This document shows positions 1,210 through 58,378 of a stretch of DNA of 64,000 bases, piece by piece; position 1 is the first letter of the stretch, and each line of letters begins with the position of its first letter. Made by a program: the position numbers and the translations under genes. The DNA lies in contig CALVIE010000001.1 of the NCBI GenBank assembly GCA_944329385.1, forward strand, positions 2,168-66,167, in the 5' to 3' direction. The DNA comes from an uncultured Bacilli bacterium (GTDB taxonomy: Bacteria; Bacillota_I; Bacilli_A; RF39; UBA660). The notes beneath the pieces were generated by a model. That model was not told where the DNA came from. It searched no databases and saw only the letters and a program-made list of their open reading frames with translations.

Positions 1210-1797
1210 TTAATTATAATATTTTCCTTGTTTAAAAAGATGTTTTTTAGTTAATTTTTTTTCTATACGAAGGCCTAATTTTTGAGCCATTTTGGTTTTT
1301 ACGTTGTTTTTGCTTGAAAGCTGATCAACTAAAATAGCTTTAATACCATATTTTTTTGCGCCAACAATATCAGATAAAATTTGATCACCGATAGCAACAG
1401 TGTTTTCTTTTTTTGAGTTTAATATTTTTAAAGCTTTTTGATAAGCTGTTTTTTGGGGTTTGTTTGCTTCATATAAGGCTTTTGTTTTTAATTTTTTTGA
1501 TACGGGTAGAACTCTTTTTGAATGATTATTTGAAAAAAGTAAGATTTTAAAGTTTTGACTTTTTAAATTTTTAAATAGTGTTTCGGTTTTTTCTGGTATG
1601 TTTAAATCATCTACTTTAGCTACTGTATTATCAATATCAAATAAAATGGTGTTTATGTTTTGCTTTTTTAGTTTACTATAATCTATTTCATAAATATTTT
1701 TATAATAACTATCAGGAAGTGCGAATTTAATTTCTTTTTTAAAACCCAGCATTATTTTTATGAAGGTTTTTATCATTAGAAAATGTTTATATTTCAT
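1210..1797 (-). CDS. yqeG: YqeG-family HAD-IIIA phosphatase
   Basis: DxD motif LFDIDNTV plus FSNN...KP...GDQILSDI; the overall pattern matches the B. subtilis YqeG family. Confidence 0.75.
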   Translation of the reverse strand: MKYKHFLMIKTFIKIMLGFKKEIKFALPDSYYKNIYEIDYSKLKKQNINTILFDIDNTVAKVDDLNIPEKTETLFKNLKSQNFKILLFSNNHSKRVLPVSKKLKTKALYEANKPQKTAYQKALKILNSKKENTVAIGDQILSDIVGAKKYGIKAILVDQLSSKNNVKTKMAQKLGLRIEKKLTKKHLFKQGKYYN

Positions 1798-1821
1798 AGT
1801 AAAAAATAATCACCAAAGTGA

Positions 1822-2331
1822 CTATTTTGTTTCCTTTTCTAATTTTTCAGTTACGTTTTTAGAAACTTCGATTACTTTGCTTTTAATAGCGTTAGCTGAT
1901 TTTTCAATTGCTGGTGTACCTTTTTCAATGGCGTAATTAACTAATTCTTCAGCTGCATCTTTGAGTTTTTTTGCTTGTTTTTTGGCTTCTGCAAGAACGG
2001 TTTCTTTATCTAAATCAGCAATTCCTTGTTTAATCTCTTCAATTTTTAATTCTACTGTTTCTCTAACATCATCCATATCAAGATTTTTAACTTTGTTTAA
2101 TAAATCATCAAACATTTTTTTTAGATCTTCTCTAGTTTCTGATCCTTTTTTAGGTGCGAATAATAGTCCAAGGGCTGCCCCTACTCCCGCACCTAAAACA
2201 AATTTCCCAATTCCATTATTTTTCTTTGTCATGAACATTTTCCTTTCTATTAAATAATTTACCAATGGCATTTGATAAAAAGTTAATGATTGTATCACTA
2301 AAACCAACAACGGCGTCAGTGGTGTTATCAA
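1822..2331 (-). CDS. YtxH-like general stress protein (true start probably at the internal Met near 2236)
   Basis: Core GKFVLGAGVGAALGLLFAPKKGSETREDLKK followed by a K/E-rich coiled coil resembles YtxH. The hydrophobic N-terminal extension looks like out-of-context read-through of the ORF caller. Confidence 0.6.
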   Translation of the reverse strand: MITPLTPLLVLVIQSLTFYQMPLVNYLIERKMFMTKKNNGIGKFVLGAGVGAALGLLFAPKKGSETREDLKKMFDDLLNKVKNLDMDDVRETVELKIEEIKQGIADLDKETVLAEAKKQAKKLKDAAEELVNYAIEKGTPAIEKSANAIKSKVIEVSKNVTEKLEKETK

Positions 2332-2506
2332 TTATATTAAATAAACCGTTTAGTTGGCTTGATTTTTGACTGACATCATCAACTAATTTATCAATTTTAT
2401 CTAAAGTTTTTATGGCATTGATAACTAAGATTATTAAAGCAACTACTAGTACAGTTAATAATATGTAGAAAAATACAGATAATACATCAGCTAAGCTTAT
2501 CATCAT
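2216..2506 (-). CDS. DUF948 / YtxG-like membrane protein
   Basis: N-terminal TM helix followed by a coiled-coil region, located immediately upstream of the ytxH-like gene as in the B. subtilis ytxGHJ arrangement. Confidence 0.5.
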   Translation of the reverse strand: MMISLADVLSVFFYILLTVLVVALIILVINAIKTLDKIDKLVDDVSQKSSQLNGLFNIIDNTTDAVVGFSDTIINFLSNAIGKLFNRKENVHDKEK

Positions 2507-3258
2507 TATTTATTCTCCTTTTCATAGAATGAGTCAATCATACTAAATAACTCTTGGTCACTTATTTTTCTTGGCTCTTTTTTTGGTTTTTCTTCGTGTT
2601 TATCCATTTCTTCTTCTAATAAATCTGTTAAATCATCTTCTGTTTTCGTGCTATGTCTTGGTTTTTCTTTTTTTGAATTATCATAGTCGATTTTTTCTTC
2701 TTTTTTTAATTTTTTTTCATCACCAAATAGTACTCTACTACCACCAAATAAGGTTGTTTCAATATCGGCTTCTAACCCTCCATAAGCTTTATTTCTAATA
2801 GCATCGACATTTGCCTCTTTGGAACTATAATAAGATGATCTTCCTTCTGGTTTAGAAGTGTATTCATCTTTTTGATATTCCTTATCTAAAATACCATAGA
2901 CTGGTGATATTATTGGCGATGGCCTAAAGACTTTTTTTTCTTCTTTTGGTGGATTATATACTTCTGTTTTTGTTTGCTGTCTTGTACGTTTTGGTTCTCT
3001 TGGTTCTGGTTTAACATCAACTACATCAAAGTCATTGTCATCAAAAAATGGAAATTTGTATTCATTTTTTGGCTGTTCTATGACTGGTTCTTCCTTCTTT
3101 TCTTCTGGCTGTTCATATTTCTCTAAGCGAGATTTTTTAGGAGAAGGAATTTCTACTTGAATTACTTCTTTTTGAACGCCTTCGTTTTTTTGTGGTTCTG
3201 GCTGTTCTACTTCGACTTCTTCGGTAAATAAATTTTTAAATTTATCAATTAGTCCCAT
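2506..3258 (-). CDS. hypothetical K/E/P-rich low-complexity protein; the N-terminal amphipathic segment resembles SepF-like membrane-binding helices
   Basis: MGLIDKFKNLF N-terminus followed by about 200 aa of charged low-complexity sequence. No catalytic motif. Confidence 0.35.
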   Translation of the reverse strand: MGLIDKFKNLFTEEVEVEQPEPQKNEGVQKEVIQVEIPSPKKSRLEKYEQPEEKKEEPVIEQPKNEYKFPFFDDNDFDVVDVKPEPREPKRTRQQTKTEVYNPPKEEKKVFRPSPIISPVYGILDKEYQKDEYTSKPEGRSSYYSSKEANVDAIRNKAYGGLEADIETTLFGGSRVLFGDEKKLKKEEKIDYDNSKKEKPRHSTKTEDDLTDLLEEEMDKHEEKPKKEPRKISDQELFSMIDSFYEKENK

Positions 3259-3270
3259 TTAAATACACCT

Positions 3271-3870
3271 CTACTTTTCTTCATAACGTAAGAAGTTATC
3301 ATCATTATTTCCTTTTGAACTAAATACGTCATATTCTTCTTCTTTGTTTTTTAAAAAGTCATCTTCTAATGATAATTTTATTATATTACTACTATATTTT
3401 ATTGTCGATAAAATGTATGAACAATTTAAAACTGTATCATTGATGTCTTCTTTTTGTACTAAGGCTTCAATTTTCGCATAGTTATAGACAAATTCAATTA
3501 AGTATAAATCGTTTTTTTTGGTTATTTCTAAATAACCTTTTTTATCACCATTTTTAATTTTTTTGGAATAATATTTACTATTATCGACTTTATAATTATT
3601 TGTTTTTTTATAATAATAACTTATTTCATCTAAGTATAGATAATAGTATACTCCATTTGAATATAATTTATCATTAGTCCCACTACTATCGATATAAGTT
3701 ACTCCTCTTGGCACATAATACTTATATCCTCTTCCCACACGGTTATACAAAGTATTTTCTTTGGACAATATAACATTAATAATATTATCAATGCTTGTTG
3801 TATCAATTCTAACAACGGTACAACCAGTTAAAATTAAGGTTAATAGTCCTAAAAAGATTATTTTCTTCAT
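3271..3870 (-). CDS. lipoprotein (LTGC lipobox), Tyr/Lys-rich
   Basis: MKKIIFLGLLTLILTGC signal peptidase II lipobox; function unknown. Confidence 0.5.
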   Translation of the reverse strand: MKKIIFLGLLTLILTGCTVVRIDTTSIDNIINVILSKENTLYNRVGRGYKYYVPRGVTYIDSSGTNDKLYSNGVYYYLYLDEISYYYKKTNNYKVDNSKYYSKKIKNGDKKGYLEITKKNDLYLIEFVYNYAKIEALVQKEDINDTVLNCSYILSTIKYSSNIIKLSLEDDFLKNKEEEYDVFSSKGNNDDNFLRYEEK

Positions 3871-51794: not shown

Positions 51795-54299
51795 CTATTT
51801 ATTTAATATGGCATCTATTGGTTTAATTCTATTTACTCTACTAATTGAAATAAAGGTTATTACTAAAGCTATTATAATTGTAAAGATAAACATACCAAAT
51901 GGAACTAATGGACTTTTTATTATTCCGTTTAAGGTATAATACATGTTTCCAAACATACTTTTATTTAATAAATTACAAGCATATATCCAACCCATGACTG
52001 ATAATATCCATGATATGAAACCAATTATTAATGATTCATAGGTAAATATTTTTAAGGTATCTTTATTTCTAGCTCCTAGGGCTCTTAATATACCGATTTC
52101 TTTTTTGGCATATGATATTGATGTTCCTATGAAGTTTGAAAATAGTAAAATAGCAAATAAAACAAAGATCAAACTTACTACTAATATGTATTTATATAGT
52201 GCTTTATATGTACCAATGACCGTAGATATATCTGATTCATGAGGTATACTATAGGTATAATATGTTCCATTTTTAAAATCTCTTATTTGACTAAATTTAT
52301 ATTTGTTAAAAAATTCTTTTAGATTTTTAATGTCATCATCATAAATATATACTTCTTCTAATGTTTTTGTCTTTGGGGTATATTCTTCTACATATTCGTT
52401 ACTGACATATGAATTATCTTCTATAGTTACGCCTATAGTATTTATAACAATATTATCGGTTTTATTTGTTTTTTGATTATATTTTTTTAGTTTTATTTTT
52501 AAGGAATTAAAATTATTACTATTTAAATAACTTTGAGTATATGTTTCTACAATTTCGTTATATGAGAGCGTGCTGTTATTTTTTGAATATTCTTCTAATC
52601 CTTGGTTATAATTTGGATCTAGCTTTTTTAAATCGTTTATAGATAGTATTACTTCATTTTTGTTTAATTTGTTTACTTCTTTTAATCCTTCTTTGGTAAT
52701 TATAGTTTTATTTTTGGTTAAACTATTTAAATTATATGTGGATATTTCTTCTGGATTAATATTTTCATTATCTACTATATTGGTAATAGACATTTTAGTT
52801 AATATTTCTCTTTTATCACTATTTAATTTAGCTACATTTGTAAAACCTTTTACGTAAACGGTGCATGATGGTTCAATATAATCATTTTGTATGTAATTTC
52901 TTAGGTCATAATTATTAATCGGATTTCCATTTTTATATTCTTCAAACTGACTATTATCGTCATCTACTACTCCACTTATGGTTACTTTATTATCGCCTAA
53001 TTTTAATTCATGTTTTGAATTTACAAGCTCTTCGATATTTTTTGGTTTATATAGATTATTTTCACTATCGATAACACCATATTTAATTATGTATTCGGCT
53101 AAATATTTATGAATGACTAATTCTTGATTTGTTTCTGGAAGTTTACCGATTAATTTACCTACTACTTTGTCATCTGTTATTTCAACGAATCTGATAATAG
53201 CTGGTTCATTCATATAATAATCTGGTTTTTCTATTTCTGATGCACCTAATTCAAAGGTTAAAATTGAGTTATTATCATATAACATATAGGCTTTGTTTAA
53301 AGTACTTTTGGTATCTTTTTCTATTTGTTTTATGTCCTCTTCTTTTAATTCGTGTGTTTTTTGATCATATTGTCCATAATATTCTGTTTTAGTTACGGTA
53401 TAGACATATTGGTTATTTTCCTTCATGGTGTTGGTCATTAAATCTACTTTATCAAATATTAAACAGTTTACGGTAAAGCCCATAAAGATTAAAGCCATAG
53501 CTGTTAATATACAAGTCATTAAAAGTTTTAATGGTTTTATGGTAAGGGATTTTAAAGCTAATTTAATGCTGTAAGAAAATGGTAGTTTTGATTTTGTTAA
53601 ATGAAAATCTTCAATTTTTATTTCTGTTTTGGGGTTAGTGTCATGAATGATGTTGCCATCTTTTAGTTCAATTATTCTATCGGCATAAGTTGCGGCAGAT
53701 TCCATATCATGTGATACGACTATTACTAATTTTTCTTTGGATATTTCTTTTAATAGTTCGAAGATTTGTTTACTTGAGGTTTGGTCTAGGTTGCCGGTTG
53801 GTTCATCGGCTAAAATTATTTTAGGGTTTTTGATTAAGGCTCTAGCAATGGCAACTCTTTGTTTTTGTCCACCTGATAATTCATTTGGTTTTCTTTGCTC
53901 TAAATCTTTTAATCCTAAGCGATTTAATAAATTTTCTACTTCATCTTTTTGGGGTTTTTTATTTTGCAATCTTAAAGCTAGCTCTATGTTTTCATAGACG
54001 TTATACTCTTCTAGAATATTGAATTCTTGGAAGATAAAGCCGATATATGTATTTCTATATGAGTCATACTGTTTATTTTTAAAGTTACTGATGTTTTGAT
54101 TGTTGATTAGAAGTTCTCCGCTAGTAATATTATCTAAGCCACCTAGTAAGTTTAACATAGTTGATTTTCCACTACCTGATTTACCAGTGATGAAAACCAT
54201 ACCCTTATTTCCTATTTTTAAGTTTATATTATTTAAGGCTTTTGTTTCGACTCCTTTTTTAGTTTTATAAATTTTATTTACATTTTTAAATTCTATCAT
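51795..54299 (-). CDS. fused ABC transporter ATP-binding domain plus FtsX/MacB-like permease with a large extracytoplasmic domain
   Basis: N-terminal Walker A GKSGSGKST, signature LSGGQKQRVAIARAL, Walker B ILADEPT; then TM, about 400-aa extracellular region and a C-terminal FtsX-type 3-TM bundle. SD AGGGGG. Confidence 0.75.
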   Translation of the reverse strand: MIEFKNVNKIYKTKKGVETKALNNINLKIGNKGMVFITGKSGSGKSTMLNLLGGLDNITSGELLINNQNISNFKNKQYDSYRNTYIGFIFQEFNILEEYNVYENIELALRLQNKKPQKDEVENLLNRLGLKDLEQRKPNELSGGQKQRVAIARALIKNPKIILADEPTGNLDQTSSKQIFELLKEISKEKLVIVVSHDMESAATYADRIIELKDGNIIHDTNPKTEIKIEDFHLTKSKLPFSYSIKLALKSLTIKPLKLLMTCILTAMALIFMGFTVNCLIFDKVDLMTNTMKENNQYVYTVTKTEYYGQYDQKTHELKEEDIKQIEKDTKSTLNKAYMLYDNNSILTFELGASEIEKPDYYMNEPAIIRFVEITDDKVVGKLIGKLPETNQELVIHKYLAEYIIKYGVIDSENNLYKPKNIEELVNSKHELKLGDNKVTISGVVDDDNSQFEEYKNGNPINNYDLRNYIQNDYIEPSCTVYVKGFTNVAKLNSDKREILTKMSITNIVDNENINPEEISTYNLNSLTKNKTIITKEGLKEVNKLNKNEVILSINDLKKLDPNYNQGLEEYSKNNSTLSYNEIVETYTQSYLNSNNFNSLKIKLKKYNQKTNKTDNIVINTIGVTIEDNSYVSNEYVEEYTPKTKTLEEVYIYDDDIKNLKEFFNKYKFSQIRDFKNGTYYTYSIPHESDISTVIGTYKALYKYILVVSLIFVLFAILLFSNFIGTSISYAKKEIGILRALGARNKDTLKIFTYESLIIGFISWILSVMGWIYACNLLNKSMFGNMYYTLNGIIKSPLVPFGMFIFTIIIALVITFISISRVNRIKPIDAILNK

Positions 54300-54464
54300 A
54301 TTAGCCCCCTACTTTCTAATATCATTTTATCACACTTTTACAAAGTTTTGAGGTTTGATATGATATTTTTTGTTTTTTATTATGTAATGAATAGTTATAT
54401 TGTTTAATTTATATAAGGAATATCTTAACAGTTTGAGTGCTTGCCTCCAAAAGGAGGTGGTGAT

Positions 54465-54539
54465 ATGACTAAGAAAGATTTTTTAATTTTTTCTTTAATT
54501 ATTATCATCTTTTTACTTATAATTTTATTATTTAGATAA
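54465..54539 (+). CDS. candidate small hydrophobic peptide (24 aa), type-I-toxin-like
   Basis: Strong SD AAAGGAGGTG 6 nt before ATG; MTKKDFLIFSLIIIIFLLIILLFR (charged N-terminus plus TM helix). The SD is embedded in a CCTCC-AAAA-GGAGG hairpin. 10-bp perfect inverted repeats at 54433-54442 and 54557-54566 bracket the ORF. Confidence 0.3.
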   Translation: MTKKDFLIFSLIIIIFLLIILLFR

Positions 54540-54711
54540 TGATTTATAAATAGCAAAAGCACTCAATTTACATTCTGTAGATTAAGTGCTTTAACCATAA
54601 ATTTTAGGTAAGTACTCAACATTGGAGTGTTAAGTATTCCTTTTTTATTTTATGAGAATAATCTCATCTATATACATGGTAACATAAATTCTTGCTGTTT
54701 TCAAGCTTGGT

Positions 54712-55632
54712 TTATATTTTCAAATATTTTTTAACAGCTCTCCATGAGCCAAACATACCAACGGCAATACCAATGCCTAATAATATTAATGATGTTGTGT
54801 AGACAAATGGGACTGGTTCAATTAGTTTAATGAATGGCGAGAATAGATGACCGTCAAAGTTTCTATATAGGGCATTATAACCATAGATTGTTGTTAATAT
54901 TGGAATGATAGAGCCTAAGGCACCAAGTAATAATCCTTCGATGATGAATGGAATTCTGATATTTAAGTTAGAGGCACCAATTAATCTCATAATACCAATT
55001 TCTCTTTGTCTTGAATTAATAGTGATTTTAATTGTGTTAGAAATTAGGAAGGCAGTAACTAAGATTAGGGCTACTACGGCACCTAGGCATATTTTATGAA
55101 CAAAGTCAAATGTTTGAATTAGTTGTTCAACCATGCCTTCACCATATTTAACTAAGGTTATACCATCTATTTTTTCAATTTGATTAGCGGTATTTTTAAT
55201 TTTTTCAATATCTTTAACTTTTACTTGGAATGTATTTTGAATTGGATTTTCTTCATCGGTCCAATTTTTCATAATACTATCAAAGACGTCTGATGACTCA
55301 CGCATTTCTTTAGTAATATTTTGTTTTGATCTGAATTCGTAAGTATCAACGTTATCTATGATGCTTATTTCATCTTTTATTTCGTCAATTTTTTCATCTT
55401 TGGCATCATTATCGATGAAAGCGACAATGGTGACATCTCTTTCAACTAGTTTTGTGAAGTTATCAACATTATTTGAAAGAACCATTGATACGGCAACAAC
55501 GATTAGAGTTATAGTTATACAAGAGATTGAGGCAAATGAGAGTGAAAAGTTTCTAAATACACCTTTAAAGGCATCTCTAAAGTTTCTTCCGATAATTCTA
55601 AATGTTTTCATTACTGTATGTTCCTTTCTCAT
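54712..55632 (-). CDS. ftsX: cell division permease FtsX
   Basis: 4-TM FtsX topology with a periplasmic loop; directly downstream of and overlapping ftsE. Confidence 0.85.
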   Translation of the reverse strand: MRKEHTVMKTFRIIGRNFRDAFKGVFRNFSLSFASISCITITLIVVAVSMVLSNNVDNFTKLVERDVTIVAFIDNDAKDEKIDEIKDEISIIDNVDTYEFRSKQNITKEMRESSDVFDSIMKNWTDEENPIQNTFQVKVKDIEKIKNTANQIEKIDGITLVKYGEGMVEQLIQTFDFVHKICLGAVVALILVTAFLISNTIKITINSRQREIGIMRLIGASNLNIRIPFIIEGLLLGALGSIIPILTTIYGYNALYRNFDGHLFSPFIKLIEPVPFVYTTSLILLGIGIAVGMFGSWRAVKKYLKI

Positions 55633-56313: not shown

Positions 56314-57201
56314 TTATGATTTATGTCCCATTATTTCATAGGTGTCAATAACAATGACAAAGGCTTCTTTATCTATTTTTTTTATAGCTTCAGTAGCTAT
56401 AAAATATTCTCTTGTTGGAAGAGCACATAGCAAAACTGTTTTCTTTTTATTTGTATATCCGCCTTCGGCTTCAATTTTAGTGACACCATGGTTTAAGCTT
56501 TCCATGATGAATTTTTTGATTGCTTCTTCTTCGGTGGTTATAATTTCTAGGGTTTTATATTCTGAGATACCTAGTATAACTCTATCACTGATAATACCTG
56601 ATGAATACAAGGTTATGATTGAATATATGAATGATTGCCAACCAAAGAAGATACCACCGGCAAACATTATTAAGCCTTCAGAGTAGATATTTGCTTTACT
56701 ATATGGCATTTTACCATAATGAGAAAGTATTTGTTTTAAAACATCAGTTCCGCCAGTTGTAAAGTTATTTTTGAAAACTAAGCCTGTTCCGATACCACTT
56801 ATAAGTGCGCCACAAAGGGCACTTACAATCATTTCGGTATCGCCCAAATCAATATAGTTTGGTAAAAACTCTGTGGCTTTGATTAATAGTGGGTATAATA
56901 TTGAGCCGATGATAGTTGGTTTGGTTTTTTCGGTGCCTAAAAATACAAAGCTTGCGATTAATAGAATAATGTTTCCTAATAGAATTATTAATGATGGATC
57001 TATTTTGAATATTTTTTCAGTAATGATTGAAAGGCCACTTAAGCCAAAGATTAGGTTACATGGTTTTAAGAAAATATTAAAGGCAGCAGCGGAAAGTAAA
57101 ACACCGATAAAAAACATGACATAACGTTTTAATTTTTTACTACTGGTTATTTCTTTTAATAGATTAGAAGTATCTATTTGCTTTTTTTTAGCAAATATCA
57201 T
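56314..57201 (-). CDS. YitT-family membrane protein (DUF161 + DUF2179)
   Basis: Polytopic N-terminus and a C-terminal DUF2179-like soluble domain (KIEAEGGYTNKKKTVLLCALPTREY). Confidence 0.75.
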   Translation of the reverse strand: MIFAKKKQIDTSNLLKEITSSKKLKRYVMFFIGVLLSAAAFNIFLKPCNLIFGLSGLSIITEKIFKIDPSLIILLGNIILLIASFVFLGTEKTKPTIIGSILYPLLIKATEFLPNYIDLGDTEMIVSALCGALISGIGTGLVFKNNFTTGGTDVLKQILSHYGKMPYSKANIYSEGLIMFAGGIFFGWQSFIYSIITLYSSGIISDRVILGISEYKTLEIITTEEEAIKKFIMESLNHGVTKIEAEGGYTNKKKTVLLCALPTREYFIATEAIKKIDKEAFVIVIDTYEIMGHKS

Positions 57202-58296
57202 CCAGCATTCCTCCTTAAATTAGCGTTTATGAATTTATCTAAGTCACCATCCATAACTTTAGCAACGTTTGTTTCTTCACAGTTTGTCCTATGATCTTTG
57301 ACTAAGGAATATGGATGCATAACATAACTTCTAATTTGGGAGCCAAAGTTTATGTCTTTTTGCTCACCTTTGAGGTTTTGTAGTTCTTGTCTTTTATTTT
57401 CTTCTTCGATTTCATACAGTTTACTTTTTAGTATTTGCATGGCTTTAGCTTTGTTTTGAACTTGACTTCTTTCGTTTTGGCATGTTACTACGATACCAGT
57501 TGGAAGATGGGTTATTCTTACGGCACTATCTGTTGTGTTTACACTTTGTCCACCAGCTCCTGAACTATGGAAAACATCTATTTTTAAGTCTTTTTCGTTA
57601 ATATCGACTTTTACAGTATCATCAATGACAGGAGTTACTGATACTGAGGCAAATGAGGTATGTCTTCTAGCGCCTGAGTCAAAAGGAGATATTCTGACTA
57701 ATCTATGGATACCTTTTTCGTTTTTTAAATATCCATAGGCATATAATCCTTTGACAATGATTGTTATACTTTTTATTCCGGCTTCTAGTCCGTCTTCTTT
57801 GTCGATGATTTCTATTTTGTAGTTTTTCTTTTCGGCATATCTAGTATACATTCTATAGAGCATATTAGCCCAATCACAAGCTTCGGTTCCACCAGCTCCT
57901 GAGTGTATTTCTAAGACGGCATCGTTTTTATCATATTCATCTTTTAAAAGTATCATTGTTTCAATATTGTCAATTTGTTTAGTTAAAGTATTATTTTCTT
58001 CTTCCAGCCAGTTTAAGCTTTCTAAGTCATCTTTATCTAAAGCTTTAGCCATTTCTAGGTAGTCTTTAGTTTCTTCTAATAGGTTTTTAACATCTTCTAG
58101 GACTTTTTTTTCACTATTTAATTCCTTTATAATTTCTTCACTATGTTTTTTGTCATCCCAAAAATTTGGGGATAGCATTTCTGTTTCTAATTTTTTTATT
58201 TTATTTTGCTTTTCTTCTGGGTCAAAGTGACCTCCATAGTTGATTTAATTTATCTAAGTGTTTTTCATAAGTATTGATGGTTTCTTTTAGTTCCAT
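57198..58296 (-). CDS. prfB: peptide chain release factor 2, requiring a programmed +1 ribosomal frameshift
   Basis: ORF0 MELKETINTYEKHLDKLNQLWRSL ends at the canonical CTT TGA C shift site (58221-58227), preceded by the internal SD GGAGG. The +1 frame continues DPEEKQNKIKKLETEMLSPNFWDD... into the listed 57198..58178 ORF, which carries the GGQ and SPF motifs. Confidence 0.85.
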
Positions 58297-58378
58297 TGAT
58301 GTTCCTCCTATCATTAATTAATTATATCAAAATATTTGTAAATTTACTAGAGAATTTGAATGGAAAAAACAGACAATT

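Follow-up and report, generated by a model that had tools for sequence, protein, structure and literature searches.

The 412-nt gap between two minus-strand genes, ftsX and a gene for an ABC ATPase/FtsX-type permease fusion, raises the question of what is encoded there in the genome of an uncultured Bacilli bacterium. In the window, by which we mean the whole 64-kb stretch of DNA that was analysed, a first-pass annotation had placed a small ORF between the 3' end of ftsX and the promoter of the ABC transporter gene and had read it as part of a type I toxin-antitoxin-like locus. Both flanking genes were found as described. Comparative computation revealed a conserved peptide gene, a covarying RNA fold, a conserved antisense promoter with hairpins and a cassette-like distribution, and the type I-like reading is supported by the conserved peptide, the SD sequestration, the 5'/3' helix and the predicted antisense RNA. 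The segment 54380-54705 is probably a complete RNA module of the type I toxin-antitoxin class that comprises two genes, with the toxicity of the peptide inferred.

The G+C content of the window is 28%, and the MAGs that match it best, with ~1.5-Mb chromosomes, carry the labels uncultured Bacilli or Candidatus Coprosoma. An Rfam scan of the whole 64-kb window returned zero families at gathering score, and an exact-sequence look-up of the window ftsX returned no record. Elsewhere in the window, prfB (58222-58245, minus strand) contains the sequence GGAGG TCA CTT TGA C, which resembles the classic programmed +1 frameshift site and is flanked by a 30-aa leader ORF (58222-58314) on one side and the main RF2 frame (57198-58178) on the other. 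The features of the cassette and its flanks are as follows.

51795-54299, minus strand: ABC ATPase/FtsX-type permease fusion gene, 834 aa, flanking the cassette
~54380-54705, both strands: whole cassette
54380-54408, plus strand: putative promoter of the peptide mRNA, TTATGT-17 nt-TTTAAT, from the alignment of full copies and L045
54415-54651, plus strand: predicted peptide (toxin) mRNA of ~237 nt, from the folds of full copies
54415-54446, plus strand: 5' arm of the long-range helix, containing word W1, TTGAGTGCTT (54433-42), from folds and covariation
54444-54457, plus strand: SD-sequestering hairpin CCUCC-AAAA-GGAGG, from sequence and folds
54465-54539, plus strand: peptide gene, 24 aa, MTKKDFLIFSLIIIIFLLIILLFR, from the ORF list, its translation and homologues
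54502-54514, plus strand: alternative in-ORF anti-SD, UUAUCAUCUUUUU, whose predicted partner is 54451-54463 including the SD, from the MFE and RNAalifold consensus folds
54545-54669, minus strand: predicted antisense (antitoxin) RNA of ~125 nt, from its fold, both ends being predicted positions
54556-54592, both strands: hairpin H2, formed by words W2 (54557-66) and W3 (54582-91), a 3'-UTR hairpin on the plus strand, from repeats and folds
54606-54642, plus strand: 3' arm of the long-range helix, containing word W4 (54610-19), with an alternative local hairpin before the U-run, from folds
54641-54651, plus strand: U-run TTTTTTATTTT, likely the intrinsic terminator tail of the mRNA, kept in all copies
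54652-54667, both strands: hairpin H1, ATGAGA-ATAA-TCTCAT, predicted 5' hairpin of the antisense RNA, from its fold
54676-54704, minus strand: putative antisense-RNA promoter, TTGAAA-17 nt-TG-n-TACCAT, from a promoter scan
54712-55632, minus strand: ftsX, flanking the cassette

The mini-ORF with a strong SD claimed by the first-pass annotation is present on the plus strand and encodes a peptide in which an 18-residue hydrophobic helix follows a KKD head and precedes a basic C-terminus. It has no long charged C-terminal tail, a feature that several Gram-positive type I toxins carry, which counts against the type I reading. In the window, 7 nt separate GGAGG from the downstream ATG. Both main subtypes, A (the window) and B (L006), have a strong SD 7-8 nt from the ATG despite their differing flanks, and L045 has a weaker SD (GAAGG). 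Comparison of the peptide ORF between the window and L006 gave a dN of 0.16 and a dS of 0.84 (dN/dS ~0.19), with 5, 2 and 8 substitutions at codon positions 1, 2 and 3, respectively. The L045 ORF, MTKKDFLIFSLIIIIILLIILLFK, differs from that of the window by eight synonymous and two conservative changes in a direct codon comparison. At the nucleotide level, the peptide ORF has diverged more than the structural RNA arms; nevertheless, the peptide has been kept. The peptide gene is real, conserved and under purifying selection.

To find homologues, an artefactual 32-aa, TTG-extended ORF in the same frame as the 24-aa peptide was searched against 1.8 billion representatives, which yielded six short proteins with ~80% identity, and a profile search from the peptide alignment added ~50 further proteins. 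After trimming, these represent at least 49 distinct peptide variants, none of which is named or contains a Pfam domain. In all 49 variants, the terminal part consists of M-x-K-K-D-F-L-I and an Ile/Leu/Phe helix, in most cases with a basic residue after it, the invariance of KKDFL being partly due to ascertainment, because retrieval depends on common 5-residue words. The length is 21-28 aa in 38 of the 49, most commonly 27 aa. The ORFs called for this family are spurious N-terminal extensions that translate the SD ('KGGD.M') and the 5' arm ('GNILTVECLPPKGG', 'GTFNSWV' and similar), which indicates that both RNA elements accompany the peptide across the family. An exact-sequence look-up of the 32-aa extended ORF returned no record, Pfam and NCBIfam searches with three versions of the peptide gave only meaningless matches to unrelated families (E >= 1.6), and a literature search for the motif KKDFLI found no paper. 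A 45-aa ORF is also open opposite the peptide gene (54425-54562, minus strand), as it is in L001 and L006. This ORF was rejected as a true gene, because it lacks an SD and its ends are not conserved, and it is probably a mirror effect of AT-rich hydrophobic codons.

The putative promoter of the peptide mRNA fell below the threshold of a consensus promoter scan, promoter and terminator calls being in any case weak evidence in a genome of 28% G+C. Its position relative to the 5' arm is conserved, and other subtypes have TTGTGT-17-TATAAT where the window has TTATGT-17-TTTAAT. From this promoter, the mRNA is predicted to start near 54415. At the other end, the U-run was not called in a strict terminator scan of the window, because its stem contains too few G-C pairs. 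Two better-scoring plus-strand promoter-like sites, TTTACA-16-TATGAT with TG directly upstream of the -10 and TTGATA-17-TATTAT, are present at 54337-54383. The left flank that contains them is common to the 5'-truncated copies of L003 and L033 and is not found in the full copies of subtype B. These sites could give a longer 5' UTR or form part of the divergent ABC promoter region.

The repeats reported in the first-pass annotation proved to be accurately described as far as they went. The SD does lie in the CCTCC-AAAA-GGAGG hairpin at 54444-54457, a perfect 10-nt inverted repeat is formed by TTGAGTGCTT (54433-42) and AAGCACTCAA (54557-66), and the further copies of the word (54582-91 and 54610-19) and the T-run (54641-54651) are in place. 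The motif AAGYACTYAA occurs four times in the 64-kb window, all within one 190-nt stretch, with 1.13 occurrences expected window-wide. Structure prediction, which had been suggested as a check, gave a plus-strand RNA fold of -77 kcal/mol (z = -7.1) that none of 200 shuffles equalled. Its terminal helix consists of 29 pairs between 54415-54446 and 54606-54642 and reaches the first bases of the T-run. In both the MFE and consensus folds, 54433-42 pairs with 54610-19, and a local hairpin is formed by 54557-66 and 54582-91. Thus, of the hok-like fold-back proposed earlier, the pairing of the 5' and 3' ends stands, whereas the 10-bp repeat is not the main fold-back, the 32-nt terminal helix being dominant. 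Pairing of W1 with W2 (54433-42 with 54557-66) was obtained only in folds of the nascent transcript, in both subtypes when folded up to W2. When W3 and then the 3' arm were added, H2 and the terminal helix took over. W1, W2 and W3 are altered jointly between the subtypes (G/C/G to A/U/A), and this joint change and the nascent folds are consistent with sequential folding like that of aapA1, which we offer as a conjecture.

The fold is conserved among copies. The terminal helix recurred in all five full copies folded separately, including that of the window, and L045 shares it in the consensus. In an RNAalifold analysis of six copies, 97.3% of the 74 consensus pairs are formed, as compared with 40-49% when the 3' partners were slid by 1 to 3 columns. 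Seven pairs have changed on both sides in the consensus versus 0-4 in the slid controls, and the covariation score was reached by none of 500 shuffles. Because these six sequences represent about three lineages, this small sample provides good support for the fold, short of proof. The pairs of the terminal helix are 99-100% formed in the six copies and include three compensatory pairs; H2 (consensus helix 6) contains one compensatory pair (CG to UA or the reverse), and the in-ORF anti-SD helix (helix 3; 12 pairs), seen in all six copies, is 95.8% formed with one-sided changes only. Several helix positions have a G.U pair in part of the copies and a Watson-Crick pair in the rest, the equivalent of G.U on the minus strand being a C.A mismatch, which suggests selection on the plus-strand RNA. 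Furthermore, the anti-SD pairs differ between subtypes A (CCUCC/GGAGG) and B (GCC..CUUC/GAAG..GGC), and the SD is sequestered in every copy. These distinct solutions suggest that SD occlusion itself is under selection.

The first-pass annotation had also suggested that the opposite strand could supply an antisense RNA. Such an RNA is indeed predicted: opposite the mRNA 3' UTR, the minus strand has a conserved promoter and three hairpins, together with a tail that resembles a terminator. The -35 box, the 17-nt spacing and the extended -10 of the antisense promoter are kept in all full copies, two truncated copies and L045 (as TTGATA-17-TGT-TATAAT), and the spacer sequence varies. The predicted RNA folds into three hairpins (-37.9 kcal/mol, z = -7.3), the last of which is H2, followed by UUUUGCUAUUUAU; on the minus strand, H2 and this tail are likely the terminator of the antisense RNA. 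The loop of H1 varies between copies, and in L045 its stem has changed from GAGA/TCTC to GCAAG/CTTGC with pairing kept. The predicted RNA is fully complementary to the mRNA 3' UTR, and its end at ~54545 lies just downstream of the ORF stop (54539). As a separate observation, ftsX of the window has no terminator hairpin of its own at 54668-54711 (minus strand), where relatives L002, L004 and L010 have AAAAACTCTGAAATTAATCAGAGTTT. Therefore, ftsEX read-through probably enters the antisense side of the cassette and stops at its hairpins, and it would probably enlarge the antisense RNA pool.

Related loci were fetched with the ABC protein of the window as an anchor, and their comparison indicated a patchily distributed, discrete element. 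It is present in L001, whose ABC protein is 98% identical to that of the window, and in L006, L033 and L042 (62-68%), where it again lies between ftsX and the ABC gene. It is absent from L002, L004, L009 and L010, whose ABC proteins are 90-93% identical to that of the window, and is also missing in L032, L039 and L043. The gap in L002, L004, L009 and L010 is ~100 nt long and, apart from the ABC -10 region that the window has too, contains only a compact terminator hairpin of ftsX (AAAAACTCTGAAATTAATCAGAGTTT). A second, truncated copy is present beside the full one in L033, L006 and L042, and a truncated copy lies between tandem ABC paralogues in L033 and L003. Several truncated copies have a common 112-bp deletion between two T-runs, equivalent to 54379-54490 of the window. 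These copies have thereby lost the plus-strand promoter, 5' arm and SD as well as the start of the ORF, with the ATG and the codons right after it.

A further full copy has the same architecture in an unrelated context, beside a tRNA-Thr gene. This full copy is on L045, a 721-bp contig without an ftsX or ABC gene. Its module has an SD hairpin, the ORF and a 5' arm that begins 7 nt after the promoter (TTGTGT-17-TATAAT), and further keeps a shortened H2, the 3' arm, the U-run, the antisense 5' hairpin and the antisense promoter. Neither a six-frame motif scan nor a search with an nhmmer profile revealed copies beyond those named in the window, which contains one, or in ~440 kb of related loci. 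A blastn search of the element against plasmids and phages gave no match, and DNA pattern scans of metagenome and viral contigs gave only chance matches in phage genes (one gene, the same in L030 and L044, and an unrelated ORF in L046). Comparison with element-free relatives revealed no target-site duplication and no clean insertion edge at the element boundaries.

The surroundings of the cassette are themselves variable. Tandem duplicates of the ABC ATPase/FtsX-permease fusion gene are present in L033 (10001-15312), L039 (7476-12514), L005, L007 and L011. The truncated cassette between the L033 paralogues suggests that the duplication unit carried part of the cassette. The gene that follows the ABC genes has weak or clear HipA_C kinase matches in L033 (15361-16518), L039 (12583-13749) and L042 (4146-5303); no HipA_C-type gene is present at the equivalent site of the window, where yabG follows directly. 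In L001, the closest relative, the cassette is followed by a 650-aa ORF and not by ftsX (1607-3590), suggesting rearrangement or insertion at the antisense-promoter end.

In the mechanism that we propose, in which the transcript ends, the RNA-RNA interaction, the involvement of an RNase and the toxicity of the peptide are all inferred, the plus strand would give an mRNA of ~237 nt for a 24-aa single-helix membrane peptide. This mRNA would be translationally inert, its 5' end being paired with the 3' end just before the terminator U-run and its SD being hidden by pairing, within the upstream CCUCC/GGAGG hairpin or else with the in-ORF anti-SD. The convergent minus-strand promoter would give an antisense RNA of ~125 nt with three hairpins, a perfect complement of the mRNA 3' UTR including the 3' arm, and the two could form a duplex of ~105 bp. 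By analogy with bsrG/SR4 and related Gram-positive systems, the duplex would be cleaved, leading to mRNA decay and reinforcing the translation block. If the antisense RNA were lost or the mRNA processed, the peptide would be made and inserted into the membrane. The four related, interchangeable 10-nt words (W1-W4) may permit alternative pairings, and the W1-W2 fold-back in the nascent transcript could hold the SD closed during transcription.

The strongest competing explanation is that the cassette is a true gene for a small, non-toxic membrane protein whose structured mRNA is regulated by an antisense RNA, the protein being, for example, a regulatory or accessory subunit of a membrane complex like the adjacent ABC/FtsX-type transporter. 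The best argument for it is the position of the element directly upstream of, and divergent from, ABC/FtsX-fusion genes in four lineages; truncated copies also accompany duplicated ABC paralogues, the peptide is a plain transmembrane helix, and all of the evidence for conservation fits a harmless protein equally well. Against a subunit, however, orthologous ABC genes at 90-93% identity manage without the element, and the 721-bp contig L045 has a full copy by a tRNA gene and no transporter. In addition, inactivating deletions, tandem copies and patchy presence typify selfish or accessory modules, and double SD sequestration combined with a 5'/3' lock would be unusual for an ordinary small-protein gene. 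We therefore regard this explanation as rather unlikely, although it deserves to be kept in mind.

Far less probable is a non-coding repeat element of the miniature inverted-repeat or REP-like type, in which the terminal repeats produce the fold and the ORF is incidental in AT-rich DNA. Terminal inverted repeats of ~32 nt around a core of ~240 bp, presence/absence polymorphism and partial copies are all expected of such an element, and the 45-aa ORF shows that the opposite strand can be open too. This ORF, however, has neither an SD nor conserved ends, whereas the peptide ORF has a dN/dS of ~0.19 with third-position changes dominant and has kept its length and sequence in 49 variants. Every copy retains an SD-like sequence at a conserved distance from the ATG, most strongly in subtypes A and B, while the surroundings diverge, and the G.U pairs indicate selection on one RNA strand. 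Moreover, neither a target-site duplication nor a clean boundary was seen, and the window contains a single copy, with none beyond those named in ~440 kb of related loci.

That the repeats are merely the ftsEX terminator and promoter or leader elements of the ABC transporter, the outcome that the first-pass annotation had named as its refutation, is scarcely credible and already largely refuted by the comparative data: the ftsX of the window does lack its own terminator, so that the minus-strand hairpins of the element probably end ftsEX read-through, but element-free relatives keep both a compact ftsX terminator and the ABC -10 region in their ~100-nt gap, the element also occurs beside a tRNA gene and between tandem ABC genes, and the coding conservation would be left unexplained. 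We also rejected a leader or riboswitch of the ABC gene, since the -10 region of that gene is situated beyond the element and persists in element-free relatives.

Annotation of type I systems is poor, because the peptides are shorter than gene callers accept and the RNAs are specific to each family. The database copies of this peptide are all hidden in nameless, spurious, N-terminally extended ORFs. The peptide signature (MxKKDFLI plus a helix) and the covarying mRNA fold would provide a ready model for annotation in uncultured Bacilli. As a type I module, the cassette would offer a Gram-positive example in which a toxin mRNA is locked 5'-3', as well as a compact RNA switch from nature for study. 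The gain for the field would be incremental and would involve no new principle.

Type I loci are described by an mRNA of 150-400 nt, a peptide of 20-60 aa, an SD/anti-SD pair and a 5'-3' long-distance interaction, and in Gram-positive families the asRNA is on the 3' side (PMC8594479). The cassette has a 24-aa hydrophobic peptide on a predicted mRNA of ~237 nt, a predicted and covarying mRNA fold that sequesters the SD and includes a 5'-3' long-distance interaction, and, by sequence comparison, a conserved minus-strand promoter, three hairpins and a U-rich tail. Rfam holds 13 type I antitoxin RNA families (PMC8594479). No match to the Rfam antitoxin RNA families or to Pfam/NCBIfam toxin models was found, and a permissive Rfam scan of 54250-54760 gave only chance-level matches (E up to 10); this lack of homology to known toxins and antitoxins weighs against the type I reading. 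Since the features of the class that computation could address are present, or in the case of the antisense RNA predicted, and no match was obtained by sequence or covariance model, the cassette was filed as a new family of a known kind, in no named family.

Among the systems of B. subtilis, bsrG/SR4, txpA/RatA, bsrE/SR5 and yonT/SR6 resemble the cassette in their Gram-positive host and small hydrophobic peptide. In these 3'-overlap systems, a convergent cis-antisense RNA of ~100-180 nt covers the 3' part of the toxin mRNA (PMC3834814, PMC8594479). The bsrG/SR4 group and the cassette both have a convergent 3'-side antisense RNA, predicted in the latter, and an SD in a double-stranded region (PMC3834814, PMC8594479). 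In TxpA/RatA, BsrG/E/H and YonT, however, the asRNA overlaps the ORF, whereas the predicted asRNA of the cassette is limited to the 3' UTR (PMC8594479). The cassette also differs from the bsrG/SR4 group in the ~30-bp helix that joins the 5' and 3' ends of its mRNA and in its shorter peptide (24-27 aa), and it has no sequence similarity to this group and no Rfam/Pfam match.

The 5'-3' lock instead recalls hok/Sok and AapA/IsoA, in which the full-length mRNA is locked by a 5'-3' interaction combined with SD sequestration, as predicted for the cassette. Successive, metastable co-transcriptional pairings like those suggested for the four words are documented for aapA1 (PMC6733600). These systems are Gram-negative, and their antisense RNA lies within the mRNA, on the 5' side or over the ORF, unlike the 3'-side antisense RNA of the cassette (PMC8594479). 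Activation of hok and AapA by 3' trimming leaves the antisense target intact, whereas trimming in the cassette would remove the target. Their peptides have no homology to that of the cassette.

Fst/RNAII (par) and SprA1/SprA1as consist of convergent genes that overlap only beyond the ORF and have words common to both RNAs, and the same arrangement is predicted for the cassette (PMC8594479). Its peptide lacks the charged tail, and it has no Pfam toxin or Rfam antitoxin match. The predicted antisense RNA of the cassette carries AAGCACUUAA, which could conceivably pair with W1 beside the SD, a purely speculative parallel to the Fst/SprA1 interaction outside the overlap (PMC8594479). A more ambitious proposal, which we place at about an even chance, is that the cassette is the founding, unannotated member of a widespread type I family in uncultured gut Bacilli with small genomes (~1.5 Mb), one that would combine the 5'-3' lock of hok/AapA with the 3'-UTR antitoxin of Gram-positive systems, operate a four-word co-transcriptional switch and leave, in its 5'-deleted copies, orphan antitoxin genes.
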